Below, in pieces: positions 31,157 to 45,988 of a DNA stretch of 64,000 nucleotides (positions within the stretch are counted from its first letter, which is position 1; every line of letters begins with the position of its first letter). The notes under the pieces were generated by a model that was not told where the DNA came from, searched no databases, and saw only the letters and a program-made list of their open reading frames with translations. The translations under genes were made by a program, and so were the position numbers. Source of the DNA: Hymenobacter sp. B81 (GTDB lineage: Bacteria > Bacteroidota > Bacteroidia > Cytophagales > Hymenobacteraceae); the NCBI RefSeq assembly GCF_044628455.1, contig NZ_JBIYZW010000001.1, positions 370,947-434,946 of the forward strand. The letters run 5' to 3'.

Positions 31157-31387
31157 CCTACGCTCGGCTAGGGCCCCCGGTGGGGCCGTGGGTGGGGCTT
31201 TGGGCCTTCTGCTGCCACGGGGAGGCGGCCGGGGCAACTGCTGGCTGGTTGAGCTAACTCGGATGACTGTAAAAAGGTTAGGCCTCCCTGGCGCCGGGAT
31301 GGCGGCAGGAAGGCCTACTGGGTAAGTGCCGGGCGAGGGGGCCTTGGGGTAACCGCTGAAGGGGGCTGCCCGGAGCCGGGCGGGGGC

Positions 31388-32008
31388 TTAGGGCTGAGGG
31401 GTGAAGCGCTGAAGCTCGAGGCGCTGCTGGAGCAGGCCGGTGGAGCGGGAGTAGAGGTCGGCGCGCACGAGGCCGTGGGTGGGGGATATGTAGTCGTCGG
31501 CGAGCTGGATGAGGGGCGTGGATTGGGCGGGGTAGAGGTATTGCAGCTCGATGTGGTAGCGGGTAGCGGTGTGGCGCTGGCGCGAGGCGGGCACGGGGGC
31601 GGGCGCGGCGGCGCGGGAGGTGAGCACCCACAGGGTGTGGGTGGGGTAGACGTAGTTGTAGCCGGGCGAGCCGCCGTAGGTGGCGTTGGGGTAGACGATG
31701 ACGTGGCCGAGGCTGCCGGGGTTGTAGCGCAGGTAGCCCTGGGGGCCGTTTTGCACGATGCTGCCATCGGAGAGGATGTACCAGGTGCTGCCGGCCAGGG
31801 CGGTGTCGCGCCGCACGGAGCGCACGACGGTGGTACTGTCGGTGATGCGGCCGTCGGCGTTGTACTGGTAGCGGGTGTACTCCCAGGTGTGGCCCACGCG
31901 CAGGGGCACGACCTGCTCGGGCGGGGCGAGGTCGGCGTCTTTTTTGCAGGCGGCGAGGGCGAAGCTGGCGGCGGTGGCCAGCAGGGCGAAGCGGACGGTG
32001 GCGGGCAT
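31388..32008 (-). CDS. Hypothetical lipoprotein
   Basis: Signal peptide with lipobox FALAAC; beta-rich 206-aa ORF. Coordinates taken from the ORF track. Confidence 0.5.
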   Translation of the reverse strand: MPATVRFALLATAASFALAACKKDADLAPPEQVVPLRVGHTWEYTRYQYNADGRITDSTTVVRSVRRDTALAGSTWYILSDGSIVQNGPQGYLRYNPGSLGHVIVYPNATYGGSPGYNYVYPTHTLWVLTSRAAAPAPVPASRQRHTATRYHIELQYLYPAQSTPLIQLADDYISPTHGLVRADLYSRSTGLLQQRLELQRFTPQP

Positions 32009-32153
32009 GCGGGGAATAAAGGGGCGGGCAAGATAGGCGGCTGGGGCGAGGAGGCTGGAACGGGGGGGCGGGTTGCATGGGGCAGGGCTGGCGGGAAGAA
32101 ACCGCTGAGCTTATCGCTCGTAGGAAATAGGCATTACCATTCTGTCTACTGCA

Positions 32154-32609
32154 ATGCTACGCAACCCATTTTTTATGCTGCTGCTGGCCCTGGGGGCCGG
32201 GCTGGGCGCGTGTTCCCAGCAAGAAGCCGACCAGGCCGCCGCCGCTGACGTAACAGCGCCGCCGGCCGAGGTAGCCACGGCTCCGGTTCCGGCGGGCCAC
32301 ACCACCGACGAAGGTGGCAGCTCGGTGTACACCACGCAAGACAGCGAGGACATCATCATCACGGGCAACAACTCGGTGCAGACGCGGACCGTGAACGGGC
32401 AGGATATTCAGGTGCTGGGCGACGGGAACCAGGCCACGTTTACGGGCCGCGGCAAGGATTTCTACGCGGTAGGCAATGCCAACACGGTGGTGCTGGAACA
32501 CGTCAAATCCATTCAGGTAACCGGCGACAACAACGTGGTGACCTGGAAGGGGGATACGCCCAACATTCAGAATGCCGGGAAGAACAATACCATTTCGCAG
32601 GTGAAGTAG
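32154..32609 (+). CDS. Lipoprotein with short G-x-N-N-x-V repeats (DUF3060-like)
   Basis: Lipobox LGAC; repeats ITGNNSVQ / LGDGNQAT / VGNANTVV / TGDNNVVT. Confidence 0.55.
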   Translation: MLRNPFFMLLLALGAGLGACSQQEADQAAAADVTAPPAEVATAPVPAGHTTDEGGSSVYTTQDSEDIIITGNNSVQTRTVNGQDIQVLGDGNQATFTGRGKDFYAVGNANTVVLEHVKSIQVTGDNNVVTWKGDTPNIQNAGKNNTISQVK

Positions 32610-32667
32610 CGGGCGGGCGCCGGGGTGCTGATTGTGTTGCCGGGCGGCGGTCGGTGCCCGTGGGCGG

Positions 32668-33084
32668 TTACCAGAAGCCGACGTACTCGATGAGGGCGTA
32701 GACGATGATGCCGGCGCCGAGCAGCAGGAACAGATAAAGCATGAAATCGGAGCCGGGGGCCATGATGGTGAAGGTGGTGGGGTCGGCGGGGAGGTAGCGC
32801 AGTCGCACGGTTTCGCCTTCGTGGTGGCTGGCGGGGTTGGTGCCCTGGTGGTAGCGGGCGGTTATCCACTCCTGCTGCGTCGTCAGGAAGCGCACGACGG
32901 GGACGTACACGGTGCTTCTGCGGCTGGTTTGTTCTTCCAGGCGAATGACGGTGCCGGTGGTTTCGGTGCCGTGGCGGCGGATGTGGGCGGCTTTGCGCAG
33001 CATCAGGATGGCCCCGATGAGAAAGAAGCCGCCGAAGACGACGAGCTGAATCAGGCGCTCATCGGCCGCGTCGAGGGTGGGCAT
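32668..33084 (-). CDS. DUF3592-like small membrane protein (TM, beta domain, TM), array member 1
   Basis: N-terminal TM, central beta-rich domain (TGTVIRLEEQ...VYVPVVRFLT...GETVRLRYLPADP), C-terminal TM. Confidence 0.55.
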   Translation of the reverse strand: MPTLDAADERLIQLVVFGGFFLIGAILMLRKAAHIRRHGTETTGTVIRLEEQTSRRSTVYVPVVRFLTTQQEWITARYHQGTNPASHHEGETVRLRYLPADPTTFTIMAPGSDFMLYLFLLLGAGIIVYALIEYVGFW

Positions 33085-33128
33085 GGGGCGGGTTGGGGTT
33101 TCAGGGGTTGGCGGCTGGGGCCGCCGGG

Positions 33129-33509
33129 TTAGAAAACAAGGCGCCAGAGCGCGTATAGAACCAGCCAGCCCCCGCCTATGGTGAGGCCATAGAACCCTAG
33201 CGGGGAACCTTCGCCGATGGCGTAGTGGCTGGGTACAGCGGGGTCGTAGAGGATGGGTACCTCGTCGCCGACGGTGTAGGCGCTGTGGTATACCAGGTCG
33301 GTAATTTTCTGCTGGGTACGGGTGGTGAAGCGGATGGTGGCCAGGCGGTCGTCTCCCTGGCCTTGTATAGCCACAACGGTGCCGCGGGTACGCTCGCCGT
33401 ATTCGACGAGTCGGGTGTAGCGGCGGCGGCTCAGCTGCCCTGCGGCCACCAGGGTTACGCCCAGTAGAAGCAGTAAAGCGGCGTCGGCGGTGGGGGAGAC
33501 AAGGGGCAT
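33129..33509 (-). CDS. DUF3592-like small membrane protein, array member 2
   Basis: Same architecture (RGTVVAIQGQG...TIRFTT...GDEVPILYDP...C-terminal TM). Confidence 0.55.
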   Translation of the reverse strand: MPLVSPTADAALLLLLGVTLVAAGQLSRRRYTRLVEYGERTRGTVVAIQGQGDDRLATIRFTTRTQQKITDLVYHSAYTVGDEVPILYDPAVPSHYAIGEGSPLGFYGLTIGGGWLVLYALWRLVF

Positions 33510-33520
33510 GGGGATGTGCT

Positions 33521-33588
33521 AGGACTTAAGCGCCTCTCGAATCCCATTAAGGGTGTCGGCAATGGCTTCGAGTTTGATGAGCAATTAG
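33521..33588 (-). pseudogene. Orphan 3'-terminal fragment (21 codons, bounded by in-frame stops) homologous to the C-terminus of the giant gene 34030..38994, low GC
   Basis: Minus-strand translation LLIKLEAIADTLNGIREALKS* aligns with the giant-protein C-terminus VLTRLEAIAGGLSGIREALKQE* (14/21 identical). Codon usage is AT-rich, unlike the native copy. Confidence 0.6.
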
Positions 33589-33613
33589 TTGGTGCCAAAG
33601 CTGCGGAGGGTAT

Positions 33614-34015
33614 CTAAGGGAGATATTTCCATACGGCGTATACCAGTCCGCTAATTCCGAAGACTACAAGCATCCAGTCGCCGAAGCTTAGTCCCTGCCC
33701 ATCGATACTCACGCTGTTTGAGTCGGACAGATCAAAACGCACTGTGACTTCGTCGCCTTCTTTATAGCGGTCAGTAGTAATGCCAAAGCTGGAGCGGACT
33801 GTTATCAATTCCTGCTGAGCATTCTGGAAACGAATCACTGGATAAAAAGCCGGGGACTTACCTGCTTCGTAGTCAATCCAAATTACTGTGCCGGCCGCCG
33901 TTACGCCGGTTCGTTGTAGTCGAAATTTTTGACGCACTCTATACAGGGAAACCAGTGTGATAATCATACTTGGAACCGCTACAAGAATGAAACCTACGAT
34001 ATCAATACCCTCCAT
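33614..34015 (-). CDS. DUF3592-like small membrane protein, array member 3; low-GC (~47%) cassette
   Basis: TM-beta-TM architecture (TAAGTVIWIDYEAG...PVIRFQN...GDEVTVRFDL...C-terminal TM). Strongly AT-shifted codon usage versus the ~68% GC background. Lies 14 nt downstream of the giant-gene stop. Confidence 0.6.
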   Translation of the reverse strand: MEGIDIVGFILVAVPSMIITLVSLYRVRQKFRLQRTGVTAAGTVIWIDYEAGKSPAFYPVIRFQNAQQELITVRSSFGITTDRYKEGDEVTVRFDLSDSNSVSIDGQGLSFGDWMLVVFGISGLVYAVWKYLP

Positions 34016-34029
34016 AACTTATGTATTGT

Positions 34030-37000
34030 CTATTCCTGCTTTAGTGCCTCCCGGATGCCGCTGAGGCCGCCCGCAATGGCCTCCAGCCTGGTGAGCACCT
34101 GCAGCACCTGGCCGGTCTGGGAGTTGCGCAGGTTTTCCTGGTAGGTGTGCTTGATCTGCTGCCAGCGCTGCTGCTGCTCGGGGGTGAGCCAGCCGAGCAG
34201 CTCGCGCAGCTTGAGCAGGTTGGCTTCGGTGGCGCTGGTCAGGGTTTGGGCTTCGCTCTCGTAGTGGGCGGCCAGTAGCTGCTCGATTTCCTGCTCGTTC
34301 ATGACGGGGCGCACTTTCTCGGCCAGCTTGTTCATGTTGCGGTAGGAGCCCTGGAGCTTGAACGGCGGCTCGGTGCGGTAGGCGTCGGCCTGGGCGGCCG
34401 AGGCAATGTAGGCGGCGTTGACGCGGGCCACCACGTCGCGCAGGCGCAGCAGCTTCTGCAGCACGGCCACGTACTCGCTCAGCTCCTCGGGGGCGTGGTT
34501 GCCCTCGAAGGAGAGGCCGTCGGCCTGGTTGGTTTCGGCGAGGCGAATGAGGGTGGGCACGTCCTGCGGGGCCTGGCCGGCGAGGCGGGCCAGGGCGGCG
34601 TTGCTGGTGAGGGCGTTTTCGAGGTAGGAGAGGCGGAAGGCGTCTTCGGAGCCGGCCGTGAGAATGTCGCCGAGGTTGTAGATGTCGGCGCGGTTGGCCA
34701 GCATGTCGGGCAGCTTGAACACGTCGCCGGTTTCGGTGTAGGGGTTGCCGGCCATCACCACGCACACCTTGCGGCCGCGGAAGTCGTAGGTGCGGGCGCG
34801 GCCCTGGTACACGCCCTCAATCTTGCGCTGGGCGTCGCAGAGCGAGATAAACTTCTGCAGAAACTCGGGGTGGCAGTGCTGGATGTCGTCGACGTAAATC
34901 ATCACGTTGTCGCCCATCTCGAAGGCCAGGTTGAGCTTCTCCAGCTCCTGCCGCGCCCCGGCGTTGGGCGCCTGCGCCGGGTCGACGCTGGTGACGGCGT
35001 GGCCGATGGCCGGGCCGTTGATTTTCATGAAGATGAGGCCGAGGCGGTTGGCCACGTACTCCAGCAGGGTGGTCTTGCCGTAGCCCGGCGGCGAGATGAG
35101 CAGCAGCAGGCCCATGAGGTCGGTGCGCTTGCCTTCCCCGGCCGTGCCGATCTGCTTGGCCAGGTTGGCGCCGATGAGGGGCAGATACACCTGGTCGATG
35201 AGCTGGTTGCGCACGAAGGAGGTGAGCACGCGCGGGCGGAAATCGGCTAGGCGCATGTGCTCGGCGGCCTGGGTTAGCAGCTGCTTTTTCAGCTCGGCAA
35301 ACTGCTCGAACTGGGGCAGCGTGTGCTGGGCAAAGTGATGCAGGCGGCGGCGGAAGTGGGGAAAGTTGAGCTCGTAACTCGTTTTTTGTTTTTCGTTGCT
35401 CGTGACCAGACGCGGGTGGCTGCCGCGCATGTCGGGCAGCACTTCCGTGAGCGGGGTGCGAATGACGCGCTCGGGGGCATAGCTGCGGGAGGCGAGCAGG
35501 GCGGCAGTTTCGTCGCAAAATGCAGCCCAGACCGGGTGGCCGGCCTGCTGCAGGAAGGCCCGCAGCCACTGGCGAATCAGCTGGTACTGGGCGGCAGGCT
35601 GCTGGGCCAGGGCCGCTACCGACGCCTCGAAGGTGTCGGCGGCGCGGCGCTCTTTCAGGTGCTTCAGGAAAGCTTCGGAGAGGTCGGCGGCTTCGGCGGA
35701 AGTGGTGAAGGCGGGGGCCTCACCCCCCGGCCCCCTCTCCGAGGGAGAGGGGGAGCCAGACGACTGCTGAATTAGCTCGTGCAGCAGGTATTCGCCGGCT
35801 TCGGCAACTTCTTCGGGCGTGAACAGGCTGGTTTCCTGCGCGAACTGCTCAATGGCGGTTTGCAGCTCGGCGGTGAGCTTGCCGGTTTCGCGGGCGTCGG
35901 GGAAGACCTGTAGCAGCAGCGCCAGGCCCTGAATCTGGTGCTGCCAGTGGGCTTGCCGGTCGGCGGGGGCGAAGCGGTGCCAGTAGAGGTTGGCGGCGGC
36001 GCGGGTTTCGGTGGGGTAGCGCAGCAGGCCGGTGGCGCGGGTGAGGCGCACCAGGGCCGCGAGAATGAGGGCCGCGTCGTGGTCGTGCACGCCTTTGAGG
36101 TAGCCCTCGGCGTAGCGCGGGGCCATGTGCTGCTGCACGTAGGCCAGCAGGTCGGCGGGGCTCAGGCGTTCCAGCTCGGCTACCGACAGCGTGGCGGGGC
36201 GGCCTTCGGCGGCGGGCTGGGGGTGCTGGGCGGCGGTGAGCAGCTGGTAGGCCAGAAACTCGGCGCGGTACACGTCGTGGTTCTCGGAGGGCAGCGTCTG
36301 CTCCCACACCGGGCGGGCCTGCTCCACGGCGGCGTCCTCTACGGCGCGGTAGAAGTTGGTGCCGGTGAGGTGGTAGTGCAGCTGTCCGTCGCGCAGCACC
36401 AGCGTCAGCTCCAGCGGCTGGGTGTTCACGGTGAAGGTGTGCGGGCCGAAGCGCACGCCCTGGCCGCCGTCCACGAACAGGTCGGCGCGGTCCTTGAGCT
36501 GGCGCACGGCGTCTTCACGCACGGTTTTCAGGCGCGACTGGAGGTCGTCGGCCTTCACCGCGTCGCCCAACGCCAGCAGCTCGTCCACGGTGCGGCGCAC
36601 TTTCTCCACCATCACGTCGGCGGCGAAGTAGCCGTTGATGTCGGCCACCGCGGTGAGCTTGCTCACGCGATTCTGCACGGCTTTCAGCATGCGCTCGGCC
36701 GACTGTAGCAGGGCCGAGGCGCGCTGGTTGCGGGCGGCCACCAGGCTCTGCTTGCGGGCCTCGAAGGCTTCGTAGGCTTCCTCGCGGCGGGTGGCCAGCT
36801 GGCTCAGGAATTGGTCGAACTCGGGAAACTTGCCTTCCAGCTCCTCCAGTTGCACCATCAGGCGCGAGAGGTACTCGTCGCACTTGGCGGGCGTGTCGGA
36901 GAGGTCGAGGTAGTTCACCAGGGCCTGCTCCAGCAGCTTGAGTTGGGCGGCAAACTCGGCCTGGGCCTCGGTGCCGGCCAGGGCCTGGCGGCGGCGCTTG

Positions 37001-38994
37001 AGGGCGGCCCGCAGCTGGTTGAAGCCGGCGTAGATGCCCGAAATGTTGTCGATGATGCGCGTGGTCTGCGTCGGGTCGGCAATGGGCAGGTTGCCCACCA
37101 CTTCGATGAGCAATTCCAGCTCGGCGGCTACAGCATTCAGCTCCTGTTCGAGCTTGTTGGCTTCCGTCACCGTGGGCAGCTGCTCGATGCCCGCGCCCAG
37201 GGCCTGCACCCGCGCGGCGTAGGGCGTGAGGGCGTCATCGCGCAGCAGGAAGTCCACCGTGCGCTGGGCCACTTCCTGGCTCAAGCCCTGCAGCTCCCCG
37301 GCGGCTTTTTCCACGGCGGCCGCATCCACGTAGCGCAGCTCCTTCAGGGAAATGACTTCGCCGCGTACCTGGCGCAGGTCCGAGAGCTGCTGCACGTATT
37401 GCTGCACCTCGGTGGCGTCGGCGGTGCGCTTGATCAGGTCGCGCAGCTCGGCGGCGCGGCCCAGCACCTGCTGGGTGGTTTCCTGGGTGCTGCGGCGGAT
37501 GCGCTGCACCTTGTCGAACTCCTCCACGGCCGAGGTTGCGGCCTGCCGGATATCCTGCAGGGGCTCCGCGAGCTTTTCGGCGCCGGGCTCGGCCAGCCAG
37601 TGGTAGGAGTCCGATAGGGTAGTGGTGCGCCGGATCAGGTCGAGGTAGAGACCGGTGTAGGAGTCGTCCTTGCCGATGAGCGTGAGCACCTCCTGCGCCT
37701 CGGCCATGGCCCGCACAATTTCCTTGTTGCCGAGCTTGCCCAGGTAGCCGTCCTGCACCGCCGGCAGCTGAAAGTCGGGCGCGGTGTAGGGCGTCTGCCA
37801 GATCTGCACGGTGTGGTGCTTTTTGGGCTCCTCGTCGGCGCGGAAGTAGCACAGCTCGCCGTTTTCGAACAGGGCGTAGCCGTGGCAGACGATGGGCGCG
37901 GCCACCTTCTGGCTGATGAGATTGTAGCTCAGCAGCAAATACAGGCCGTTGTCCTTCTGGAAGAACACGTACAGAAAATCCTCGCCGTTGGGCGAGGCCA
38001 CGCGCTTCTCGAACACCAGCTCCTGGGGCACCTGCTCGAACTGCTTGCCGTCGCCGGTTTGCAGGTAGTAGCCGTGGGGAAAGATCAGGCCGTGGCCGTC
38101 GGGCAGCAGCACGCAGGCGTCGGCCAGCGCGTCGAGGCGCTGGGCCTGGCGCAGCTTGGTGTTGTAGAGGAAGTAGCGGAAGCCGGACTCCTGGTAGGGC
38201 CGGATTTTGAGCAAGACCAGCTGGCCGACCACCGCGTAGTGGATTTCGGCGTCGTCGAGGGTCTGGTCCTTGTTGTCGACGGGCTCGGAGTAAATACCCT
38301 GCCCGGTCTTGGTATTGTCTTCGACTTTGATGGTTAAATCCCCGCCCACCGTCTCCACGAACACCTTGTCTTCGATGCTGATGTGCGGGTGCTTGCCGGC
38401 CCGGTGCATGTCGCGGGTGGCGCGCTTCCACTGGAACTCGTGCTGGGGCGGGAAGGTGTACTCGTGGTCGGAGCGGTTGTCGAGATACACCAACGACTGG
38501 CCCTGCACCAGCCACTTAAAAGTCTTGATGTCGTTGGCCGTCTTGCCCACCCGGAACACCATGAACAGGTGCTCCCCGCGCTGGGCAAACTTGACGAAGC
38601 GCGTCTTCTTGTAGTACTTGTAGAGGTTGCGCAGCTCCTCCAGGAAGGCCTTGTCCTCGATCAGCGCCAAGCCCAGGGGCCGAAACTCCGGCCGCTGGTA
38701 CTGGTACACCCCGAACACGTCCTGCAAATCGACCTCGGTTTTGAGGCCCAGCAGCACGTTGTAGCCGAACAGGAACTTGTCGCCCAGCGCCACCATGTCC
38801 ATGGGCACGCAGTTGTGCTCGGTGGTGAGGCGCCCGGTACCCAGCAGCTGCCAGTCCAGGGCCCCAAACACCTGCTTGCGGGCGGTGTTGAGCTTGTCCA
38901 GCCGCACGCGCAGCTCCGAGCCGCCCTTGCTGAGGCGGTTGCGCAGGATTTCGTAGGTGCCGGTTTCAAGTTGAGGAGCGGCGGTAGTTTCCAT
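34030..38994 (-). CDS. Giant (1,654 aa) protein with C-terminal MoxR-like AAA+ ATPase module; N-terminal ~1,100 aa of unknown beta and coiled-coil regions
   Basis: Uninterrupted 4.96 kb ORF. C-terminal Walker A LISPPGYGKTTLLEYVANRLGL, Walker B VMIYVDDIQHC, sensor-like CVVMAGNPYTETGDVFKLPDMLANRADIYNL, colinear with MoxR/AAA_3-5 ATPases. Long predicted coiled-coil middle region. Carries a 36-nt in-frame palindromic element (SPSPSERGPGGE). Confidence 0.85.
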   Translation of the reverse strand: METTAAPQLETGTYEILRNRLSKGGSELRVRLDKLNTARKQVFGALDWQLLGTGRLTTEHNCVPMDMVALGDKFLFGYNVLLGLKTEVDLQDVFGVYQYQRPEFRPLGLALIEDKAFLEELRNLYKYYKKTRFVKFAQRGEHLFMVFRVGKTANDIKTFKWLVQGQSLVYLDNRSDHEYTFPPQHEFQWKRATRDMHRAGKHPHISIEDKVFVETVGGDLTIKVEDNTKTGQGIYSEPVDNKDQTLDDAEIHYAVVGQLVLLKIRPYQESGFRYFLYNTKLRQAQRLDALADACVLLPDGHGLIFPHGYYLQTGDGKQFEQVPQELVFEKRVASPNGEDFLYVFFQKDNGLYLLLSYNLISQKVAAPIVCHGYALFENGELCYFRADEEPKKHHTVQIWQTPYTAPDFQLPAVQDGYLGKLGNKEIVRAMAEAQEVLTLIGKDDSYTGLYLDLIRRTTTLSDSYHWLAEPGAEKLAEPLQDIRQAATSAVEEFDKVQRIRRSTQETTQQVLGRAAELRDLIKRTADATEVQQYVQQLSDLRQVRGEVISLKELRYVDAAAVEKAAGELQGLSQEVAQRTVDFLLRDDALTPYAARVQALGAGIEQLPTVTEANKLEQELNAVAAELELLIEVVGNLPIADPTQTTRIIDNISGIYAGFNQLRAALKRRRQALAGTEAQAEFAAQLKLLEQALVNYLDLSDTPAKCDEYLSRLMVQLEELEGKFPEFDQFLSQLATRREEAYEAFEARKQSLVAARNQRASALLQSAERMLKAVQNRVSKLTAVADINGYFAADVMVEKVRRTVDELLALGDAVKADDLQSRLKTVREDAVRQLKDRADLFVDGGQGVRFGPHTFTVNTQPLELTLVLRDGQLHYHLTGTNFYRAVEDAAVEQARPVWEQTLPSENHDVYRAEFLAYQLLTAAQHPQPAAEGRPATLSVAELERLSPADLLAYVQQHMAPRYAEGYLKGVHDHDAALILAALVRLTRATGLLRYPTETRAAANLYWHRFAPADRQAHWQHQIQGLALLLQVFPDARETGKLTAELQTAIEQFAQETSLFTPEEVAEAGEYLLHELIQQSSGSPSPSERGPGGEAPAFTTSAEAADLSEAFLKHLKERRAADTFEASVAALAQQPAAQYQLIRQWLRAFLQQAGHPVWAAFCDETAALLASRSYAPERVIRTPLTEVLPDMRGSHPRLVTSNEKQKTSYELNFPHFRRRLHHFAQHTLPQFEQFAELKKQLLTQAAEHMRLADFRPRVLTSFVRNQLIDQVYLPLIGANLAKQIGTAGEGKRTDLMGLLLLISPPGYGKTTLLEYVANRLGLIFMKINGPAIGHAVTSVDPAQAPNAGARQELEKLNLAFEMGDNVMIYVDDIQHCHPEFLQKFISLCDAQRKIEGVYQGRARTYDFRGRKVCVVMAGNPYTETGDVFKLPDMLANRADIYNLGDILTAGSEDAFRLSYLENALTSNAALARLAGQAPQDVPTLIRLAETNQADGLSFEGNHAPEELSEYVAVLQKLLRLRDVVARVNAAYIASAAQADAYRTEPPFKLQGSYRNMNKLAEKVRPVMNEQEIEQLLAAHYESEAQTLTSATEANLLKLRELLGWLTPEQQQRWQQIKHTYQENLRNSQTGQVLQVLTRLEAIAGGLSGIREALKQE
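35717..35757. repeat. Palindromic element copy 1 (GGCCCCCTCTCC-N4-GGAGAGGGGGAGCC), in-frame within the giant CDS
   Basis: Hairpin-forming inverted repeat, near-identical to copies at 39465 and 63876. Confidence 0.7.
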
Positions 38995-39037
38995 GGCTAT
39001 GGTAAGGGCCCGTGACGGTTGGGCGTCACGGAGGTAA

Positions 39038-39403
39038 TTAGTCGTTGCGCTGCAGGCTGGCTTTCAACAGTGCCTGCGCTGGGTCGGCTTTGGCGTACAC
39101 GACGGCCGTGGTGTCGCCCTTCCGGTGGCCTCGCATGAAAGCACGGCTGGTGCGGGCGCGCAGCGTGTAGTCCTGCCCGCCCACGCGGTACCGAATCGTA
39201 ACGCGCCGGCTCTTGATGGTTCGCCGCCGGGTGATGATGCCCGTGGCAACGCCCGGGTTTTTCAAGATGAACGCCCGCTTTTGCCGGGTTTCCTGCCTGA
39301 CCTTGTACACAATGCCCACGCACAGGGCAATGGCCAGCACGATTCCCAAGAGCAGAGCCGCTACTTGCTTGCGGTTGGTAGATGTGGCGTTTAGGGTCGT
39401 CAC
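39038..39403 (-). CDS. Small N-terminally anchored membrane protein, DUF3592-like beta domain, no C-terminal TM
   Basis: GTG start; TM (AALLLGIVLAIALCVGIVY) then GVATGIITRRRT...VTIRYRVGGQDYTL...GDTTAVVYAKADP. Sits between flotillin and the giant gene. Confidence 0.45.
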   Translation of the reverse strand: MTTLNATSTNRKQVAALLLGIVLAIALCVGIVYKVRQETRQKRAFILKNPGVATGIITRRRTIKSRRVTIRYRVGGQDYTLRARTSRAFMRGHRKGDTTAVVYAKADPAQALLKASLQRND

Positions 39404-39464
39404 TGGTATGGGGTTTCGTGGGCTGATGCCGGCCTAAGCGCTGTTCGCCGCACGGCCAGAAACC

Positions 39465-39494
39465 AGTCCCCCTCTCCGGCGGGGAGAGGGGGCT
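39465..39494. repeat. Palindromic element copy 2 (CCCCCTCTCCGGCGGGGAGAGGGGG), intergenic between flotillin stop and next gene
   Basis: Same inverted repeat core as 35717 and 63876. Confidence 0.7.
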
Positions 39495-39508
39495 AGGGGA
39501 GAGGTCCG

Positions 39509-41674
39509 TTAGTTGAGCGTACTCACCATCTTATCCGAGAGGCCCAGCATCTTGGCCGTGCCGGCCAGCTGGGTAATGGTGTTGCGCGTGGCGTCGTCGC
39601 CGGCCTTGTTCATCATTTGCAGCAGCAGGGCCGAGATGCTCAGGTTCTTCACGTCATCGGAACTGAGGCCGAACTGGTTTACGAACTTGGTGATGTTGGT
39701 TTTGAAGTCGCCGCCGTTGCCATCGAGCGGGAAAAAGGTGTCCTTCACTGTGGTCAGCACCTGGGAGTTGCCCACGGCGCGGTCGATGCTCTTGCCCTTG
39801 GTAATCGAGCCGATGATCTGGTCGAAGAACATGGTCTCGCCGCCCACGATGTCGATTTTGGCGGCTTTCAGCGCCTCGGCAATAACGCCCGACTGCGCGG
39901 CCGCAATGTCCTTCTGGATGCTGATTTCGGCCAGCTCCACGGCCTGGTCCTTGGCCAGGCGCAGCTTGAACTCCTCGTGCTCCTTGCCCACGCCGTCGAG
40001 CTTCTTCATGGCGTCGGCCTTGGCTTCGATGCCCTTGGCTTCCACCGCAAACTTCTCCTCGCTCACGCGCACTTCGGCCAGGCCCTTCTTCTGCTCGGCG
40101 TCGGCCATGGCGTCGATGACGTCCACGTCGACCATGGCCTTCTCGCGGTTGACCTTGGCGGCCACGATGCCGATTTTCTCGTCGGCTTCGGCCTGGGCGG
40201 CGGCTTTGGCCTGAATGGCCTGGGCCTCGGCCGAGGCGGTGAGCTGGAGCACGGTGGCCTCGGTTTCGCCTTCCTTCTGGCGGGCTACGGCCTTGGCCTG
40301 CATCACCTGCGCTTCGGCCAGGCCCACGGCAGTGGCTTTGCTGGCTTCGGCTTCGGCCAGGGTGCGAATGGCCTGGGCCTTGAACTCAGCCGAGGCTTTC
40401 TCGGCTTCGGCGTCGATAAGGGCCTGCTTGGCGCGGAACTCGGCGGCCTGCTTGGCCATGTCGGCTTCGCCCACCAGGCTCACCGTAGCAGCTTCGGCCT
40501 GCTGCTTGGCGGCCGTAATGGCTACCAGCTTGTCACGCTCGGCCTGGGCCTGGGCGCGGGTGTCCTTGATCTTTTCCTCTTCCTGCACGGTGGCCTTCTC
40601 CACCGCAATTCGCTCCCGGATGATGGCCTGGATGTTTTTGCGCTCCTCCTCCACGGCCTTTTCCTTCTCGATCTGGGCCAGGGCCACAATTCGCTCCCGC
40701 TCGTTGGCTTCCAGGGCCTGGGCCTGCGCCACGCGCTCGGTTTCCACCGCGTCGGTGCGCTGCTTGTTGCGCTCGGCCACCAGCACCTGCCGGTCGCGGT
40801 TCTGCTCGGCCACGCGCACTTCCTCCTCGGTGGTCAGGCGGGCGCGCTCCGATTTCAGGGTTTCTTCCTGCTGCACCTTGGCAATTTCGGCCGACTCGCG
40901 GGCCTTGATGCTGGCAATTTCGCGGCGCTGCTTTTCCTGGTTTTCGGTGAGCTGCTTTTCCAGCTGCAGGATGGTTTCCTGCGCTTCCACGTCCTGCTTC
41001 TTGATGGTCTTCTGGGTTTCCCGCTCGATGGCGTTGGCCTGAATCTTCTGCTCCGAGGTCAGGGCAATGATTTTCTTGATGCCCTCCGCGTCCAGGATGT
41101 TGTCGTGGTTCAGGGCCGACAGCGGTGTCTGCTCCAGGTAGTCGATGGCGCAGTCGTCGAGCACGTAGCCGTTCAGGTCGGTGCCGATGATGCGCAGGAT
41201 TTCCTGCTTGAATTGCTCGCGCGAGTTGTAGAGCTCGATGAAGTCAAACTGCTTGCCCACGGTCTTGAGGGCCTCCGAGAACTTGGCGTCGAAGAGGTTT
41301 TCCAGTGCGGCCGGGTCGGAGGCGCGACGGGCGCCGATGCTCTGGGCCACCTGCACCACGTCCTCGGCCGTTTTGTTGACGCGCACGAAGAAGTTCACCT
41401 TCACGTCGGCCCGCAGGTTGTCTTTGCACACGAGGCCTTCCTTGCCGGCGCGCTGAATGATGATGGTTTTCAGGGTGATGTCCATCACCTCGAGCTTGTG
41501 CAGCACGGGAATGACGAAGATGCCGGAAAACGACACGCGGGAGTCGCCCAGGCCGGTGCGCACCAGGGCTTCGCCCTGCACGGCCTTCTGGTACATCTTC
41601 ACCACAATGGCGACGATGCCCAGCAAAAACAGGCCGACTATAGCCAGCACTGCCAGGGATAATTGTTCAAGCAT
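39509..41674 (-). CDS. Flotillin-family (SPFH/band 7) protein with long EA-rich coiled-coil region (YqiK/FloT-like)
   Basis: N-terminal TM, SPFH domain (VRTGLGDSRVSFSGIFVIPVLHKLEVMDITLKTI...), ~350 aa of E/A/K/Q-rich heptads, conserved flotillin C-terminal region. ATG (MLEQLSL) at 41672-41674. Confidence 0.9.
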   Translation of the reverse strand: MLEQLSLAVLAIVGLFLLGIVAIVVKMYQKAVQGEALVRTGLGDSRVSFSGIFVIPVLHKLEVMDITLKTIIIQRAGKEGLVCKDNLRADVKVNFFVRVNKTAEDVVQVAQSIGARRASDPAALENLFDAKFSEALKTVGKQFDFIELYNSREQFKQEILRIIGTDLNGYVLDDCAIDYLEQTPLSALNHDNILDAEGIKKIIALTSEQKIQANAIERETQKTIKKQDVEAQETILQLEKQLTENQEKQRREIASIKARESAEIAKVQQEETLKSERARLTTEEEVRVAEQNRDRQVLVAERNKQRTDAVETERVAQAQALEANERERIVALAQIEKEKAVEEERKNIQAIIRERIAVEKATVQEEEKIKDTRAQAQAERDKLVAITAAKQQAEAATVSLVGEADMAKQAAEFRAKQALIDAEAEKASAEFKAQAIRTLAEAEASKATAVGLAEAQVMQAKAVARQKEGETEATVLQLTASAEAQAIQAKAAAQAEADEKIGIVAAKVNREKAMVDVDVIDAMADAEQKKGLAEVRVSEEKFAVEAKGIEAKADAMKKLDGVGKEHEEFKLRLAKDQAVELAEISIQKDIAAAQSGVIAEALKAAKIDIVGGETMFFDQIIGSITKGKSIDRAVGNSQVLTTVKDTFFPLDGNGGDFKTNITKFVNQFGLSSDDVKNLSISALLLQMMNKAGDDATRNTITQLAGTAKMLGLSDKMVSTLN

Positions 41675-41726
41675 GTAAGTAAGGAGTAGAGTTGGGTCGG
41701 GAGGAAAGTGAAAAGCAAGTGGCAAA

Positions 41727-41861
41727 TCAGGTGGCCAGCAGGGCCAGTAGGGCGCTCAGGAAGCGGCCCACGGCGTAGCCCGCGGCGGCCAGCCAGTCGG
41801 TCAGGGTGGTCGTGAAGTCGAGCAGCGGGGTCAGATAGGGCAGTAGGTCGGGCAGGATCAT
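41727..41861 (-). CDS. Possible 44-aa hydrophobic small protein between yqiJ-like and flotillin genes
   Basis: MILPDLLPYLTPLLDFTTTLTDWLAAAGYAVGRFLSALLALLAT; ATG at 41859-41861; positional support only. Confidence 0.25.
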   Translation of the reverse strand: MILPDLLPYLTPLLDFTTTLTDWLAAAGYAVGRFLSALLALLAT

Positions 41862-41948
41862 AGCGGTGGTTGGTGTGGGGTTAGGCAAAAAGCGCGAAAA
41901 CATCAGTCAGCATCTCCTGGCCGAGCAGTCTGCTCGGGGAGGGGCCGC

Positions 41949-42596
41949 TCAGCGGGCATCGTAGGGCTCGATCAGGTAGCAGCGGCGCGCGGCGTCGTAG
42001 TCGATGACCAGGGCCGTGTCGCCCTTGCGCAGCTCGCCGGAGGCCGCGCGCACATTGAGGGTGAGGGCGGCGCCCTCGGCCCGGATGCTGGCCTGGCCCA
42101 GGTGCTGGCGCGAAGTGGGCAGCAGCACGGTGCATACTTTGCCCACGGGGTTGAGGCTGCCGGCCTGGTCTTTTTCCAGGCTGGCAAACAGCTTCACGAA
42201 GGGCAGGGTAAGCACCTTGGCCACCAGCAGGCTGCCGATGAACAGCGGCACGGCCAGCACCAGCCCCAGCAGCAGCGAGTGGTTGCCGAGGTAGTAGTTG
42301 ACGAGGATGCTGCCCACCCACAGCGGCAGGGCCACGAAGCTCAGAAACACCATCAGCGGCACGCGACCCAGGTTGAAGAAGGCCAGCGCGTTGTTGATCC
42401 AGTCGACGCCCATGTGGGCGTGGTGCGGGCCGTGCGCGTCGGGACCCAGGTCGGCGTCGGGGCTCACGTGCAGGTCCAGGGTTTTGAAGTCGAGCAGGCC
42501 GACCATCACCGTGAGCCAGTAGAGCAGCACGAAAATGAGCAGGCCCGTGGCCAGCAGGTTGGGCGGGGAGGCCGCCGCGTGTAGCAATTCAGTCAT
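41949..42596 (-). CDS. YqiJ/DUF1449-family inner-membrane protein with C-terminal NfeD-like OB fold (flotillin partner)
   Basis: Multiple N-terminal TMs; C-terminal GKVCTVLLPTSRQHLGQASIRAEGAALTLNVRAASGELRKGDTALVID beta-barrel-like segment; directly upstream of flotillin as in E. coli yqiJK. Confidence 0.65.
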   Translation of the reverse strand: MTELLHAAASPPNLLATGLLIFVLLYWLTVMVGLLDFKTLDLHVSPDADLGPDAHGPHHAHMGVDWINNALAFFNLGRVPLMVFLSFVALPLWVGSILVNYYLGNHSLLLGLVLAVPLFIGSLLVAKVLTLPFVKLFASLEKDQAGSLNPVGKVCTVLLPTSRQHLGQASIRAEGAALTLNVRAASGELRKGDTALVIDYDAARRCYLIEPYDAR

Positions 42597-42673
42597 AGGA
42601 TAGCCGGCTTAGGTGAAGGTAAAACATTGCGGCGGCAAACCCAGCGGCCGCGTGCCGGCCCGGCGGGGCCGGC

Positions 42674-43387
42674 TTAGGCTGGGGGCGTGTTGAGGCCCAG
42701 CTTCTGCTTGAGGGCCTGCAGGTCGGCCGCGGCCTGGCCGCCCCCGGCCTGCAGCGCCCGGTCGATTTCCTGGTCGAGGCTTTTCTTTTCCTGGGCAATT
42801 TCGCCGTACGACTCGGCCAGGGCTTCTTCCACGGCTACTTTTTCCTTCATGCGCTCCAGCAAAGCCACCGTCCCCGACGAGTCGAGCTGGGCCAGCTGCT
42901 TGTTGATGGTTTTGGTGGCGGTGCTCACCGTCACGCGGGCCTTGAGGGTTTTTAGCTCGTTTTCCCACTGGCCGATGGTCTGGCGCAGGGTCTGCACGTT
43001 CTGGTCGAGCTGCTGCGCCGACTGCTCGAAGCGCTGCTGGTCGGCGGTGGCGCGGGTGGCGTGGGCTTCGTGCTCGGCCTTTTTACCCAGGGCTTCCCCG
43101 GCCAGACGGTCGGCTTCGGCAGTTGCCAGGTCTCCCTTGTGGGCGCGCTGCAGCAGCAGCACCGCTTTGTTTTCGTAGTCGAGGGCCTTGCTGCGGGAGC
43201 CCTCGGCCTCGTTGCGCGCCCGAATGCCCATGGCCTTCACCTCGGCCAGGGCCTGCAGGCTTTTGTCGAGGTCCTGGCGCAGGTCGCGCAGGGCCTGCTC
43301 GGTCATTTTGATGGGGTCTTCGAGCTGGTCGATGGCGGAGTGCGACTCGGCCTGGCCGATTTTGAAAAGACGGGCGAAGAGGTTCAT
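42674..43387 (-). CDS. pspA: PspA/IM30 (phage shock protein A / Vipp1) family protein
   Basis: MNLFARLFKIGQAESHSAIDQLEDPIKMTEQALRDLRQDL... canonical PspA N-terminus and coiled-coil body (237 aa). Confidence 0.9.
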   Translation of the reverse strand: MNLFARLFKIGQAESHSAIDQLEDPIKMTEQALRDLRQDLDKSLQALAEVKAMGIRARNEAEGSRSKALDYENKAVLLLQRAHKGDLATAEADRLAGEALGKKAEHEAHATRATADQQRFEQSAQQLDQNVQTLRQTIGQWENELKTLKARVTVSTATKTINKQLAQLDSSGTVALLERMKEKVAVEEALAESYGEIAQEKKSLDQEIDRALQAGGGQAAADLQALKQKLGLNTPPA

Positions 43388-43486
43388 GGCGGGTAGGGCT
43401 TAGGGAATTAGGGGTTAGGTCTTAGGGCTTAGAGGGAGGAGCGGTTGGGGCTTGAGGCAGGCGACCAATGCCTAATCCCTGGGTTC

Positions 43487-43924
43487 CTAAGCCCTCGAAA
43501 AAGCTATCAGCTCCTCCGAAAACTCGCTGAGCAGCAAACTCAGGGAATTCAGCACGGCCTCCAGCTCCGAGAGGTCGAGGGTATCGATCTGCAGCGTGTC
43601 GCGGAAGATGACCTTGCGGCCGGAATCGTCGAGGGCGAAGGCGCCGTGGATGATGTCGCGGTTCTTCTGCAGCAGGCGCTGGTACACCTCGCACGAGGGA
43701 GCCGGCAGCTCCAGGAGGTACTGCTCCAAGATCAGGAGCGGCTCGCCGCAGCCCAGCACCAGGTTGCGGATGCCCTGCGCAGGGTGGTCGACGACCAGAA
43801 TGCCGTCCGATTCGTCGGCGTGGCGGATGTCGAAGCCCAGCGTGAGCAGGTGGCGGTGAATAGTGGCAAAGTAAGGGTTGGTCATAGGCAGGGTGCGGTG
43901 GGTAGGGTTATGAGCATGGCTCAA
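43487..43924 (-). CDS. Hypothetical protein (possibly YbjN-like), first gene of the psp/flotillin cluster
   Basis: 145-aa ORF, no TM; loose resemblance to YbjN-type putative sensory regulators only. Confidence 0.45.
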   Translation of the reverse strand: MSHAHNPTHRTLPMTNPYFATIHRHLLTLGFDIRHADESDGILVVDHPAQGIRNLVLGCGEPLLILEQYLLELPAPSCEVYQRLLQKNRDIIHGAFALDDSGRKVIFRDTLQIDTLDLSELEAVLNSLSLLLSEFSEELIAFSRA

Positions 43925-44002
43925 ATAACTGGCGTTGGGAATGCGGGTTCTGAGGTGGTTGTCGTAGCTTTACGCTGCAAGAATACTGAAAGTTTTGGCT
44001 AT

Positions 44003-44017
44003 GCTCAAAGTTTGAGC
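44003..44017. promoter_or_regulatory. Perfect 15-bp palindrome GCTCAAAGTTTGAGC (nested in TTTACGCT...AGCGTAAA inverted repeat): candidate operator in divergent promoter region
   Basis: Located 20 nt upstream of the XRE regulator ATG (44037), in the 112-bp gap to the divergent psp/flotillin cluster. Confidence 0.5.
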
Positions 44018-44036
44018 GTAAAAATTTTTCGGCGTA

Positions 44037-44816
44037 ATGTCCTACATCGGCAACAATATCCGCAAGATACGCACGGTTAAGAAGCTGAGCCAGGCGGCTT
44101 TTGCGGAGCTTTTCGGGCTGGCCCGGCCCAGCGTGGGTGCCTATGAAGAAGGGCGCTCCGAGCCCAAAATGGAGACCTTGATTCAGATTGCTCATCATTT
44201 TGGCTTGTCGGTAGACCTGCTACTGACGAAAGAATTGACCGTAAACGACCTCTACGGCTTCGATATCTTTCAGCAGGACATCCAGGCCGGGCCGGTAACC
44301 GATGCCGTGGCCGAGGCCGACAAGCTCAGCCAGGTAACGCCCTGGGTGAAGGCCGACCGCGTGCTGGAGTACATCGTGCACTACCACGATAAGGCGTTCG
44401 TGGACGCCCTGCCGGCCCTGACGCTGCCCCACGCGTTGGGTGCCGCCACGCGGGCCTTCGAGATTCAGGGAGCCGAAATGCAGCACCAGCAACAGGGCCT
44501 GCGCCACCAGGACGTGGTGCTCTGCCGCCGCGTCGACCGCGCCGCGCCGCTGCTGCGCCCCGGCCGCATCTACGCCTTCGTTACGGCCAGCCGCCTGCTG
44601 GTGCGCCGGCTGGTAGAGCGCCTGCCCGACGAAAAGCTCAAGCTGCGCGCCGACAACCCCGACTACGGCACGCTGGAATTTGCCCTCGACCAGGCCCTGG
44701 AAATTTGGGAAGTGAAAGCCGTGTTTACCACCCACCTGCGCCCGCCCTCGGCCCTGGAAGAGCGCGTGAGCCGGCTGGAGCAGCAGCTAGAGGAGCTGCT
44801 GGGGCGGCTGGAATAA
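44037..44816 (+). CDS. XRE-family HTH regulator with S24/LexA-like C-terminal domain
   Basis: N-terminal HTH (IRKIRTVKKLSQAAFAELFGLARPSVGAYEEGRSEP); C-terminal CI/LexA-like fold where the usual Ser-Lys dyad is not obviously conserved (GAEM in place of GDSM). Confidence 0.7.
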   Translation: MSYIGNNIRKIRTVKKLSQAAFAELFGLARPSVGAYEEGRSEPKMETLIQIAHHFGLSVDLLLTKELTVNDLYGFDIFQQDIQAGPVTDAVAEADKLSQVTPWVKADRVLEYIVHYHDKAFVDALPALTLPHALGAATRAFEIQGAEMQHQQQGLRHQDVVLCRRVDRAAPLLRPGRIYAFVTASRLLVRRLVERLPDEKLKLRADNPDYGTLEFALDQALEIWEVKAVFTTHLRPPSALEERVSRLEQQLEELLGRLE

Positions 44817-44886
44817 GCCCCGTCAGCCGTACTTTGCCGCTGCCTTTCGCCTTTTCGGGCCCGCCGCGCCCGCCATTTTTCCCCTC

Positions 44887-45354
44887 ATGAGCATGTTGAC
44901 CATCCGCAGCCTGGCCGAACTCGAACAGTATACCGGCCAGGAACTGGGCGTGTCGCCTTACCACACCATCACGCAGGAGCAGATTGACCGCTTCGCGGCC
45001 GCCACGCTCGATTACCAGTGGATTCACCTCGACGCCGAGCGGGCCCGCACCGAGTCGCCCTTCGGGGCCACCATTGCCCACGGCTACCTCACGCTGGCGT
45101 TGCTGCCCTACTTGTGGGGGCAGGTGGTGACCATGGAAAACCTGAAGATGCAGGTGAACTACGAAATCGAGAGCCTGCGCTTCAACCAGGCCGTGACGGT
45201 GAACAGCGAAGTGCGCCTGCGGGCCCGGCTGGTGGCGGTCCGCAACCTGCGCGGCATTGCCAAGGCCCAGATTGAGGTGACGCTGGAAATCAAGGACAGC
45301 CCCAAGCCCGCTTACAACGGCCTGGTAACCTTCCTCTACCACTTCGAACAATAG
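44887..45354 (+). CDS. MaoC-like (hotdog fold) dehydratase
   Basis: 155 aa; DYQWIHLDAERARTESPFGATIAHGYLTLALL typical MaoC/NodN. Confidence 0.8.
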   Translation: MSMLTIRSLAELEQYTGQELGVSPYHTITQEQIDRFAAATLDYQWIHLDAERARTESPFGATIAHGYLTLALLPYLWGQVVTMENLKMQVNYEIESLRFNQAVTVNSEVRLRARLVAVRNLRGIAKAQIEVTLEIKDSPKPAYNGLVTFLYHFEQ

Positions 45355-45468
45355 CCGCTGCGGTTCACGGCCGCAAGTAAAGCGTAGCTTCAGGTAGCGG
45401 CCCCCTCCCGCTGGTGCCCCAACCGCCCGCGGCAGCGGGGCAATGCTGGTTTGGGCCGGGCGGAAAAA

Positions 45469-45888
45469 CTATTCGTCCAGACGCTCGAAGACGGGTAAAT
45501 AGCCCAGCACCTGCAAGGCGCCGATGCCCAGGAAGAGCAGGCCGATCAGCAGCAGGAACCCGGTGCCGGCCGGCCGGGCATCAGCCAGATCCACGTTTTC
45601 GGGGTCGAGCGGGTCGTATACCACCGCTATTTCCTGGCCCACGGCGTAGCGGCCCGCCTCGGCCGCCGACTCGGTTTCGGCTTCCACCGTGCGCCCGGCG
45701 GGCGTGGTAAAACGCACCCGGGGCGTAAGCAGCCGGCGCGCGGGCGTCAGCCCGATGAGCAGGGCCGCGGCCACGACGCCCCGCCGCTGCCGGGCACGCT
45801 GGTTGCGGCGGCCCAGCCCGGCCGCGGCCGTGAAGAACGCGCCCATTACCAGAAAGATGATGGCTTCGGCGGGAAAGATCAGGGGCAT
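45469..45888 (-). CDS. DUF3592-like small membrane protein (unlinked paralog), divergent from TetR
   Basis: TM, beta domain (VRFTTPAGRTVEAETESAAEAGRYAVGQEIAVVYDPLDPENV), TM. Confidence 0.5.
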   Translation of the reverse strand: MPLIFPAEAIIFLVMGAFFTAAAGLGRRNQRARQRRGVVAAALLIGLTPARRLLTPRVRFTTPAGRTVEAETESAAEAGRYAVGQEIAVVYDPLDPENVDLADARPAGTGFLLLIGLLFLGIGALQVLGYLPVFERLDE

Positions 45889-45973: not shown

Positions 45974-45988
45974 TAGCTTTACCCCGTC

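Follow-up and report, generated by a model that had tools for sequence, protein, structure and literature searches.

A Hymenobacter gene cluster combining CesT-PspA and YqiJ-flotillin-giant ATPase units beside a divergent, degenerate S24 repressor gene

Introduction

Operons that join CesT/Tir-PspA with three further genes have been described in silico by Ravi, Anantharaman, Aravind, Gennaro et al. (mSystems 2024, PMC11237479; preprint 2020). Their parts are the CesT/Tir-PspA pair, a band-7/flotillin protein, an AAA+ protein with a coiled coil and a beta-propeller, and a membrane protein of the YqiJ/YuaF type; a phospholipase-D (PLD) gene is occasionally present, and a shorter flotillin-YqiJ-AAA+ version is found across bacteria and archaea. 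The same work also put forward ATP-driven remodelling. Here we analyze a 64-kb stretch of DNA from Hymenobacter sp. B81 (the window, by which we mean the whole stretch analyzed), whose minus strand carries, from position 43924 to 32668, a co-oriented cluster with all four described components. An earlier note, made from the DNA alone, had nominated this cluster as an undescribed system. It is instead the Hymenobacter member of an operon class known in silico, and the ATP-driven scaffold coupled to flotillin/PspA platforms that the note envisaged is essentially the proposal of Ravi et al.

Both the occasional PLD gene and the abbreviated version across phyla were recovered here too. The published account lacks a structure-based placement of the AAA+ module and experiment; it mentions neither an S24/LexA gene nor DUF3592, and the Hymenobacter copy adds four DUF3592 genes. 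New here are the modular anatomy of the cluster, the structure-based placement of its ATPase and a degenerate LexA paralogue with candidate operators. The link between an S24 repressor and the operon is made neither in PMC11237479 nor in the work on non-canonical LexA of Sanchez-Osuna et al. (NAR 2021, PMC8565304).

Parts of the cluster resemble several other systems. E. coli YqiJ-YqiK and B. subtilis YuaF-FloT consist of homologous proteins and share the gene order, the NfeD-type gene immediately preceding that for flotillin. The E. coli and Shewanella pairs stop after flotillin and have no giant ATPase (PMC1468410), and the flotillin studied here is longer, at 721 amino acids (aa) versus 553 for YqiK, with a conserved C-terminal region of ~290 aa that does not align to YqiK. 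In ESCRT-III/Vps4 and in E. coli PspA-PspF, a polymer-former of the PspA/ESCRT-III type is likewise encoded with an AAA+ ATPase. HflK/C-FtsH, an SPFH cage that encloses an AAA+ machine, likewise couples an SPFH membrane scaffold, genetically or physically, to such an ATPase; it differs in that the ATPase here has neither a protease domain nor a transmembrane segment, and in that the topology is cytoplasmic, not periplasmic. Members of the MoxR family (CbbQ, NorQ, RavA) are stand-alone proteins of ~300 aa with a VWA-domain partner, whereas the module here forms the C-terminal quarter of a 1,654-aa protein, is accompanied by no VWA gene and has DD in Walker B. Finally, the divergent repressor belongs to the same family as the non-canonical LexA proteins (PMC8565304), with the same combination of a helix-turn-helix (HTH) and an S24 domain and with 4-5-4 promoter dyads, which in the Flavobacteriia operons are the identical CTAA-N5-TTAG. 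It departs from them in lacking the catalytic Ser, the Lys and the Ala-Gly site, in being tied to CesT-PspA and not to repair genes, and, in Hymenobacter, in its CTCA-N5-TGAG dyad.

Results

The ten minus-strand open reading frames (ORFs) reported in the earlier note are all present within 43924-32668. They are co-oriented and separated by gaps of 14-105 bp, and their GC content at third codon positions (GC3) of 0.75-0.92 is of the coding type in a genome of 65-70% GC (Table 1). Beyond this first-listed interval lie a plus-strand gene with HTH_3 and Peptidase_S24 domains and a further minus-strand DUF3592 gene.

A pattern scan of one genome per species found at least 588 that encode relatives of the giant ATPase. 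Using hidden Markov models (HMMs) iterated from the window proteins, we analyzed a genome set consisting of 80 of these giant-encoding loci plus two others; a second set of 80 metagenome loci was found by starting from the S24 protein, and the two sets together hold ~160 loci. In 61 of the 65 loci whose upstream DNA is long enough, the gene just upstream of the giant gene, on the same strand, encodes flotillin, at a median gap of 141 bp; the linkage of these two genes is far beyond chance. YqiJ stands upstream of flotillin in 57 of 64 loci. The YqiJ-flotillin-giant triad spans at least six phyla (Bacteroidota, Planctomycetota, Verrucomicrobiota, Desulfobacterota, Clostridia and Fibrobacterota), and plasmid and protein matches add Gammaproteobacteria, Actinomycetota and Deinococcota to the range of the giant family.

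The extension of this triad by an S24 gene and a divergent CesT-PspA pair is confined, among the genome loci, to Bacteroidota, where all three genes are present every time (22 loci and the window). The repressor gene is divergent to CesT in 22/22 of these loci, which come from Cytophagia, Flavobacteriia, Bacteroidia and Sphingobacteriia and hold the trio and the triad in one order; in genome and metagenome loci alike, the CesT-like gene is paired with PspA without exception. Within the metagenome set, CesT-PspA is divergently adjacent to S24 in 56 of the 58 loci that have at least 1.7 kb of upstream DNA. The run continues with YqiJ, flotillin and, contig permitting, the giant gene in 36 loci, and the trio stands alone in 18. 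The cluster is a composite of two conserved, separable units, namely repressor/CesT-PspA and YqiJ-flotillin-giant.

PspA has been joined to the triad in at least three arrangements, in Bacteroidota, in Phycisphaerae and on the Pseudomonas plasmid pQBR103. That PspA was fused to the triad repeatedly and independently is the strongest sign that they cooperate. Along with the retention of the triad across phyla, it bears out the functional coupling that the earlier note had proposed.

In the two Phycisphaerae loci, L030 (6790-7479) and L073 (4766-5449), the PspA gene is found directly downstream of the giant gene, without CesT or S24; the L073 protein matches PF04012 (E 4e-21), and phmmer shows the L030 product to be homologous to it (E 1.7e-50). 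On pQBR103, a megaplasmid of Pseudomonas fluorescens SBW25 (L164, NC_009444.1 85112-97641), a yjfJKLMC-like module is fused to the triad. The co-oriented genes there encode, in order, PspA-rhomboid-DUF2491-DUF350-DUF1190-glutathionylspermidine-synthase-like, a 217-aa hypothetical protein that occupies the YqiJ position, an SPFH protein and the giant ATPase.

BLAST clustering of ~3,000 neighbouring ORFs revealed no further widely conserved partner; the largest neighbour clusters, which are sulfatases and planctomycete cytochromes with 8-10 loci each, fall outside the conserved gene run. Three giant genes (L024, L027, L034) have neither flotillin nor YqiJ within 6-10 kb upstream. Dozens of named Hymenobacter species carry the giant gene, and the loci of H. 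oligotrophus and strain 15J16 have the window's flanking genes. One BLAST cluster occurs near the triad in five Bacteroidota/Verrucomicrobiota loci (L002 2440-2937, L013 1329-1814, L025 15471-15947, L075 16571-17275 and L077 9259-10113); its L002 and L075 members, which the Pfam scan covered, are PLDc_2 proteins (HKD phospholipase-D/nuclease), in agreement with the remark of Ravi et al.

The divergent repressor has orthologues in H. oligotrophus (WP_119443665.1) and Rufibacter tibetensis (WP_062544510.1). Both appear in Table S9 of PMC8565304 as homologues of Bacteroidetes non-canonical LexA, beside the primary SOS regulators WP_119443770.1 and WP_062545463.1. The window protein is a paralogue of the Bacteroidetes non-canonical LexA. 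In an alignment with primary LexA, lambda CI and UmuD, it has GAEM in place of G-D/N-S-M (GDSM), and Arg in place of the catalytic Lys. At the Ser position, 70 of 100 operon-linked paralogues have Glu, 13 have Asp and 6 have Ser; at the Lys position, 90 have Arg and one has Lys. Ser and Lys occur together in none of the 100. The Ala-Gly cleavage site is absent from the window repressor and from all 22 genome sequences, in which the aligned position reads LE, IE, SD or similar. Because no paralogue has both Ser and Lys, self-cleavage through the usual Ser/Lys dyad is, on this alignment, excluded.

The regulatory region shared by the repressor and CesT genes contains a perfect 4-5-4 dyad (Table 1). 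CTCA-N5-TGAG occurs only once in the window and is found at the equivalent place in all six Hymenobacter loci, while CTAA-N5-TTAG is present in one or two copies in the promoter region of 8 of 10 Flavobacteriia loci and of the Owenweeksia locus. These conserved 4-5-4 dyads, situated 20-60 bp upstream of the start codon, are candidate operators. CTAA-N5-TTAG is the non-canonical LexA box of the CTAA group, shown by electrophoretic mobility shift assay, and is also the box of the primary Hymenobacter LexA (PMC8565304). Since the Hymenobacter dyad differs from that primary box, the shifted CTCA-N5-TGAG would insulate the regulon of the paralogue from primary LexA. PMC8565304 mentions no PspA or flotillin genes and lists none as regulon members.

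A second, unrelated phage-type regulator occupies the S24-equivalent position in five Verrucomicrobiales loci (L039, L054, L062, L063, L070), where a gene for ~159 aa lies on the opposite strand ~200-500 bp upstream of YqiJ. The L070 product, the one member of the five scanned against Pfam, is Phage_CP76, a phage CII-like protein (E 3e-7).

NCBI calls the giant ATPase a 'DNA repair ATPase' and Pfam an 'ATPase involved in DNA repair'; the window protein is 100% identical to the one that bears the NCBI name in Hymenobacter sp. B81. The family name 'DUF3686' was found in none of 8 million papers. A search with the N-terminal 700 residues collected relatives amounting to 955 clusters at 50% identity. 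The AlphaFold models, with mean pLDDT of 84 and 84.7, begin with an N-terminal helix, which is followed by a beta-rich domain, long helices, a beta domain and a helical domain; the C-terminal AAA+ module carries extra helices. Foldseek placed the N-terminal part with propellers of the WD40 type at E 1e-6 to 1e-4: the WD40 domain of DCAF1, the terminal domain of clathrin, and the propellers of Vps18 and prolyl oligopeptidase. The longest helices within aa 417-837 measure ~57 residues, and DUF7902 falls at aa 587-670; a small beta domain (aa 846-884) and a helical domain (aa 910-1170) follow. No transmembrane segment was detected by sequence analysis, and neither Pfam, the model nor Foldseek revealed a DNA-binding, nuclease or helicase domain. 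The 'DNA repair' label was rejected as unsupported.

The AAA+ module contains a Walker A motif GYGKT (K1307), a Walker B DD (1369-1370) and the sequence NPYTE...LPDMLANR. Because K1307, the DD of Walker B, N1417 and several Arg do not vary among 36-51 diverse relatives, the giant protein is probably an active ATPase. Three methods differed in where they placed the module. Sequence searches with it matched only ~35-70 residues round the Walker A of p97-type proteins, and its placement by Foldseek is ambiguous; at the level of the modelled fold, it is of the MoxR type. The earlier assignment to MoxR-type AAA+ proteins is upheld in this sense. The protein is not a canonical MoxR, however, since it is not stand-alone and has no VWA partner (no VWA domain was found by Pfam in the cluster or the flanking genes of the window). 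Within the helical middle domain lies a KGVHDxDAA motif (window 36070-36096, aa ~967-975), in which H970 and D973 are invariant and G968 and D971 almost so.

Searches with the single flotillin sequence did not detect Band_7 and gave no Pfam or NCBIfam match even at E = 10, and against PDB sequences Flotillin-2 reached only E 0.086; the YqiJ-like protein likewise gave no significant match in single-sequence Pfam, NCBIfam and PDB searches. Homology to YqiK and YqiJ was consequently established with family profiles. The flotillin profile aligns with E. coli YqiK over 388 columns (hhalign probability 100, E 1.5e-42) and the YqiJ-like profile with E. coli YqiJ (probability 96.6, E 5.6e-10), both as called in the earlier note. 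Pfam YqiJ_N is matched by 15 of 45 relatives of the YqiJ-like protein. A profile-against-PDB search returned a weak coiled-coil match to QmcA only.

The first gene of the cluster had been listed as hypothetical. The gene exists, but its product is a CesT_Tir_1 protein (Table 1), and its likely start is the ATG at 43885, the ORF reaching upstream to a TTG at 43924. It is separated by 99 bp from PspA, for which the earlier assignment holds: the PF04012 match spans residues 2-227 of 237 (134 bits against a Pfam gathering score of 33.9), and a full-length comparison with E. coli PspA gives 25% identity. It falls far under the cut-offs of the NCBIfam equivalogs PspA and LiaH and is therefore orthologous neither to E. 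coli PspA nor to LiaH. Pfam and NCBIfam gave no match to the PspF activator or to the PspB/PspC partners among cluster or flanking proteins. A subfamily comparison of the window PspA with E. coli YjfJ/PspA, and of the CesT-like protein with YjfI, had no clear outcome.

All five DUF3592 genes of the window are confined to 13 kb (32668-45888), and the term DUF3592 occurs in three papers, at least two of which assign it no known function. Those at 39038-39403, 32668-33084 and 45469-45888 score above the PF12158 cut-off of 25.3 bits; those at 33614-34015 and 33129-33509 score below it and belong to the family by a local HMM (E 1e-36 to 1e-38). The paralogues are strongly divergent from each other (14-25% identity). 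The gene in the flotillin/giant gap has an orthologue at the equivalent position in L003, and the fifth gene keeps its position in H. oligotrophus and strain 15J16. The note had cast this TM-beta-TM set as a general part of the machine, a view that the wider sample does not sustain. Among the genome loci, DUF3592 adjoins the giant gene only in five from Hymenobacter (the window counted), one from Nibribacter and one from Aquimarina, either in the flotillin/giant gap or 3-15 bp past the giant stop codon; the latter spacing is seen in five Hymenobacter loci, the window and L001, L003, L005 and L010, with 3-7 bp in these four. We take these genes as an accessory of Hymenobacteraceae, not as core parts.

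Table 1. Positions in the window of the cluster, its regulatory region and immediate neighbours.
Feature	Position	Strand	Evidence
DUF3060 gene, convergent to last cluster gene	32154-32609	+	Pfam scan of flanks
DUF3592 paralogue, last gene of co-oriented run	32668-33084	-	PF12158 E 3.5e-8, 34.4 bits
DUF3592 paralogue	33129-33509	-	PF12158 21.9 bits; local family HMM
DUF3592 paralogue (TM-beta-TM), 14 bp past giant stop codon	33614-34015	-	PF12158 E 3e-4, 21.6 bits; family HMM E 1e-38
Giant ATPase, 1,654 aa, cytoplasmic	34030-38994	-	DUF3686 E 3e-193, DUF7902 E 9e-29, AAA, AAA_5 (Pfam)
AAA+ module, MoxR/AAA_5 clade, giant aa ~1264-1490	34525-35205	-	
Long helices, giant aa 417-837 (coiled-coil or helical-bundle)	36484-37746	-	Model secondary structure
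Beta-propeller, giant aa 49-400, ~28 strands, consistent with seven blades	37795-38850	-	AlphaFold model
DUF3592 protein, one N-terminal transmembrane segment, in flotillin/giant gap	39038-39403	-	PF12158 E 6e-8, 33.7 bits
GC-rich terminator-like hairpin after flotillin stop codon	39468-39492	-	One copy of palindromic repeat element
YqiK-type flotillin (SPFH)	39509-41674	-	N-terminal transmembrane segment, long coiled coil, conserved C-terminal region
Small ORF, 58 aa (44 aa from internal Met), doubtful gene	41727-41903	-	No family match
YqiJ-like (NfeD-type) multi-pass membrane protein	41949-42596	-	Profile-level homology; hydrophobic segments present
PspA/IM30 family protein, bacterial ESCRT-III-like	42674-43387	-	PF04012 (PspA_IM30) E 8e-39
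CesT/Tir-like (YbjN-like) chaperone	43487-43885	-	PF22550 (CesT_Tir_1) E 1e-51; YbjN E 1e-6
Shared repressor/CesT regulatory region	43886-44036	.	4-5-4 dyad, conserved blocks, TGAGC half-site
Perfect 4-5-4 dyad CTCAAAGTTTGAG, candidate operator	44004-44016		CTCA-N5-TGAG, ~20 bp from start codon
Divergent repressor, XRE-type HTH + degenerate S24	44037-44816	+	HTH_3 E 1e-11 (aa 8-62); Peptidase_S24 E 6e-8 (aa 135-223)
Fifth DUF3592 paralogue	45469-45888	-	PF12158 E 1e-7, 32.7 bits

The small ORF between YqiJ and flotillin, also reported in the note, exists as a reading frame; as a conserved gene it was rejected, with no counterpart in the other, closely related Hymenobacter loci. The hairpin behind flotillin could be an internal attenuator. 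It is one of three copies of a palindromic repeat element of ~45 nt, CCTCACCCCCCGGCCCCCTCTCC-N3-5-GGAGAGGGGGAGCCAG (35732-35752, 39469-39491, 63891-63912), the half-sites of which give six matches versus 0.99 expected. The copy at 35732-35752 lies in frame within the giant gene and encodes SPSPSERGPGGEA, carried by a disordered, hypervariable loop (aa ~1081-1099) whose sequence is missing from close relatives.

Across many taxa the flotillin/giant gap is a variable insertion site. Its inserts (e.g. L004 9539-9961, L021 5662-6186, L046 9504-9923, L050 9392-9945) are unrelated to each other and resemble, by sequence alone, genes for a DUF559-type endonuclease, an IS200-type transposase, toxin-antitoxin proteins and a lipoprotein.

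An Rfam scan of 31000-47000 gave no RNA families. A sigma-70 promoter scan was uninformative, with 2 sites versus 1.7 expected; Bacteroidota promoters are of another type than those the scan covers. On the far side of the DUF3060 gene, the stretch 30000-32100 has the top GC (0.707) and GC skew (0.264) of the window. It contains a PAP2 phosphatase gene (30197-31237, minus strand), a 206-aa ORF with GC3 of 0.94 and no family match (31388-32008, minus strand), and Pro/Arg-rich overlapping ORFs that appear spurious.

Discussion

We consider it reasonably probable that the cluster, in its general outline, encodes an inducible PspA/flotillin membrane scaffold that is remodelled by the giant ATPase. 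This confidence covers the general picture, and the single steps set out below are graded much lower. All soluble parts are cytoplasmic, and the giant protein has no transmembrane segment. The repressor would bind the 4-5-4 dyads and keep the operon off, and would be released non-proteolytically; one possible route is a partner switch that involves PspA and the CesT-like chaperone, in parallel to the logic of PspA-PspF and of type III secretion chaperone circuits. The ESCRT-III-like PspA, together with flotillin/YqiJ, would next build scaffolds at the inner membrane, on its cytoplasmic side. The giant ATPase probably forms a ring whose six long arms carry propellers at their tips; it would dock on these scaffolds via its propeller and use ATP to remodel, recycle or disassemble them, for which Vps4 on ESCRT-III and FtsH inside HflK/C SPFH cages are precedents. 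In Hymenobacteraceae, the DUF3592 proteins would be accessory membrane proteins co-transcribed with the ATPase.

Several points weigh against this picture. The majority of triad loci have no PspA nearby, so that PspA is not a universal substrate or obligatory partner of the ATPase. MoxR-clade ATPases usually work with a VWA partner; none is present here, and Walker B of the giant ATPase is DD, not DE. Because a strong hairpin follows flotillin and the gap between flotillin and the giant gene is variable, the whole 11 kb may not be strictly co-transcribed. The partner switch at the repressor is argued from analogy and is put forward as a possible step. A literature search found no experimental study of the giant ATPase or of any other cluster member.

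A bolder version of the remodelling picture would see here a new envelope-stress switch of Bacteroidota, in which the S24 domain of a LexA/CI-family repressor, with a conserved Glu...Arg for Ser...Lys, has become a non-cleaving sensor that is freed by CesT once PspA leaves for the membrane, and in which the giant protein is the long-sought bacterial counterpart of Vps4 and disassembles flotillin/PspA scaffolds with ATP. We offer it tentatively and regard it as rather doubtful in this complete form.

An anti-phage or abortive-infection system, in which phage-type regulators would during infection switch on a membrane effector that combines PspA and flotillin with the ATPase and, at times, an enzyme of the PLD family, seems to us improbable. 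Such a role would suit the CI-like S24 paralogue of Bacteroidota, the CII-like Phage_CP76 regulator divergent from YqiJ in the five Verrucomicrobiales loci, the PLDc_2 genes near five loci, the copies on megaplasmids, the NACHT gene downstream in H. oligotrophus, and the toxin-antitoxin-like, transposase-like and DUF559-like genes that gather in the flotillin/giant gap. The core, however, has no nuclease, protease or NADase effector. When the ten proteins were searched against PADLOC-DB 2.0, PspA matched JetC, LmuB and DruC weakly (E 5e-4 to 3e-3, coiled-coil noise) and the other nine matched nothing, and in 50,697 phage genomes tblastn found no match to the giant protein. The presence of the giant gene in dozens of Hymenobacter species, with flanks shared by H. 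oligotrophus and 15J16, is also unlike the patchy distribution of defence islands.

We see equally little prospect for the view that the two units, trio and triad, and the DUF3592 genes are juxtaposed by chance without joint function. Each unit does occur alone elsewhere, three giant loci lack an upstream flotillin, and a hairpin and a variable gap separate flotillin from the giant gene; yet trio and triad are fused in equal order in 22 genome and 36 metagenome loci, independent unions of PspA with the triad are seen in Phycisphaerae and on pQBR103, and flotillin is closely adjacent to the giant gene (61/65 loci, median gap 141 bp). For the DUF3592 genes alone, juxtaposition is quite plausible: they are lineage-restricted and mutually 14-25% identical, against which stands their start 3-15 bp past the giant stop codon in five loci.

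Least of all do we credit a DNA-damage or SOS role, in which the ATPase would act on DNA and RecA-stimulated repressor cleavage would induce the operon: the 'DNA repair' names of NCBI and Pfam, the place of the repressor within the non-canonical LexA family and the Flavobacteriia CTAA-N5-TTAG box, a primary LexA target that makes cross-regulation possible in some species, are set against a giant protein built of propeller, helices and MoxR-clade AAA+ with no DNA-binding, nuclease or helicase domain, constant partners that are membrane proteins, a Ser position that is Glu/Asp in 83 and a Lys position that is Arg in 90 of 100 paralogues, with Ser and Lys together in none and no Ala-Gly in the genome set, a Hymenobacter dyad that is CTCA-N5-TGAG and not CTAA-N5-TTAG, and the absence of PspA/flotillin genes from the regulon of PMC8565304.

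Counted by its giant ATPase, which goes under the misleading name 'DNA repair ATPase', the triad occurs in at least 588 species-level genomes of many phyla. For the remodelling or recycling of bacterial flotillins and of PspA/ESCRT-III-like polymers, a dedicated ATPase encoded next door is the obvious candidate. An entry point is provided by the dedicated repressor, which is predicted to be non-cleaving, and by its predicted operator, CTCA-N5-TGAG in Hymenobacter and CTAA-N5-TTAG in Flavobacteriia. The degenerate S24 paralogue may also explain why, as we read PMC8565304, many Flavobacteriaceae have a 'LexA' homologue of the CTAA group without control over the SOS regulon.

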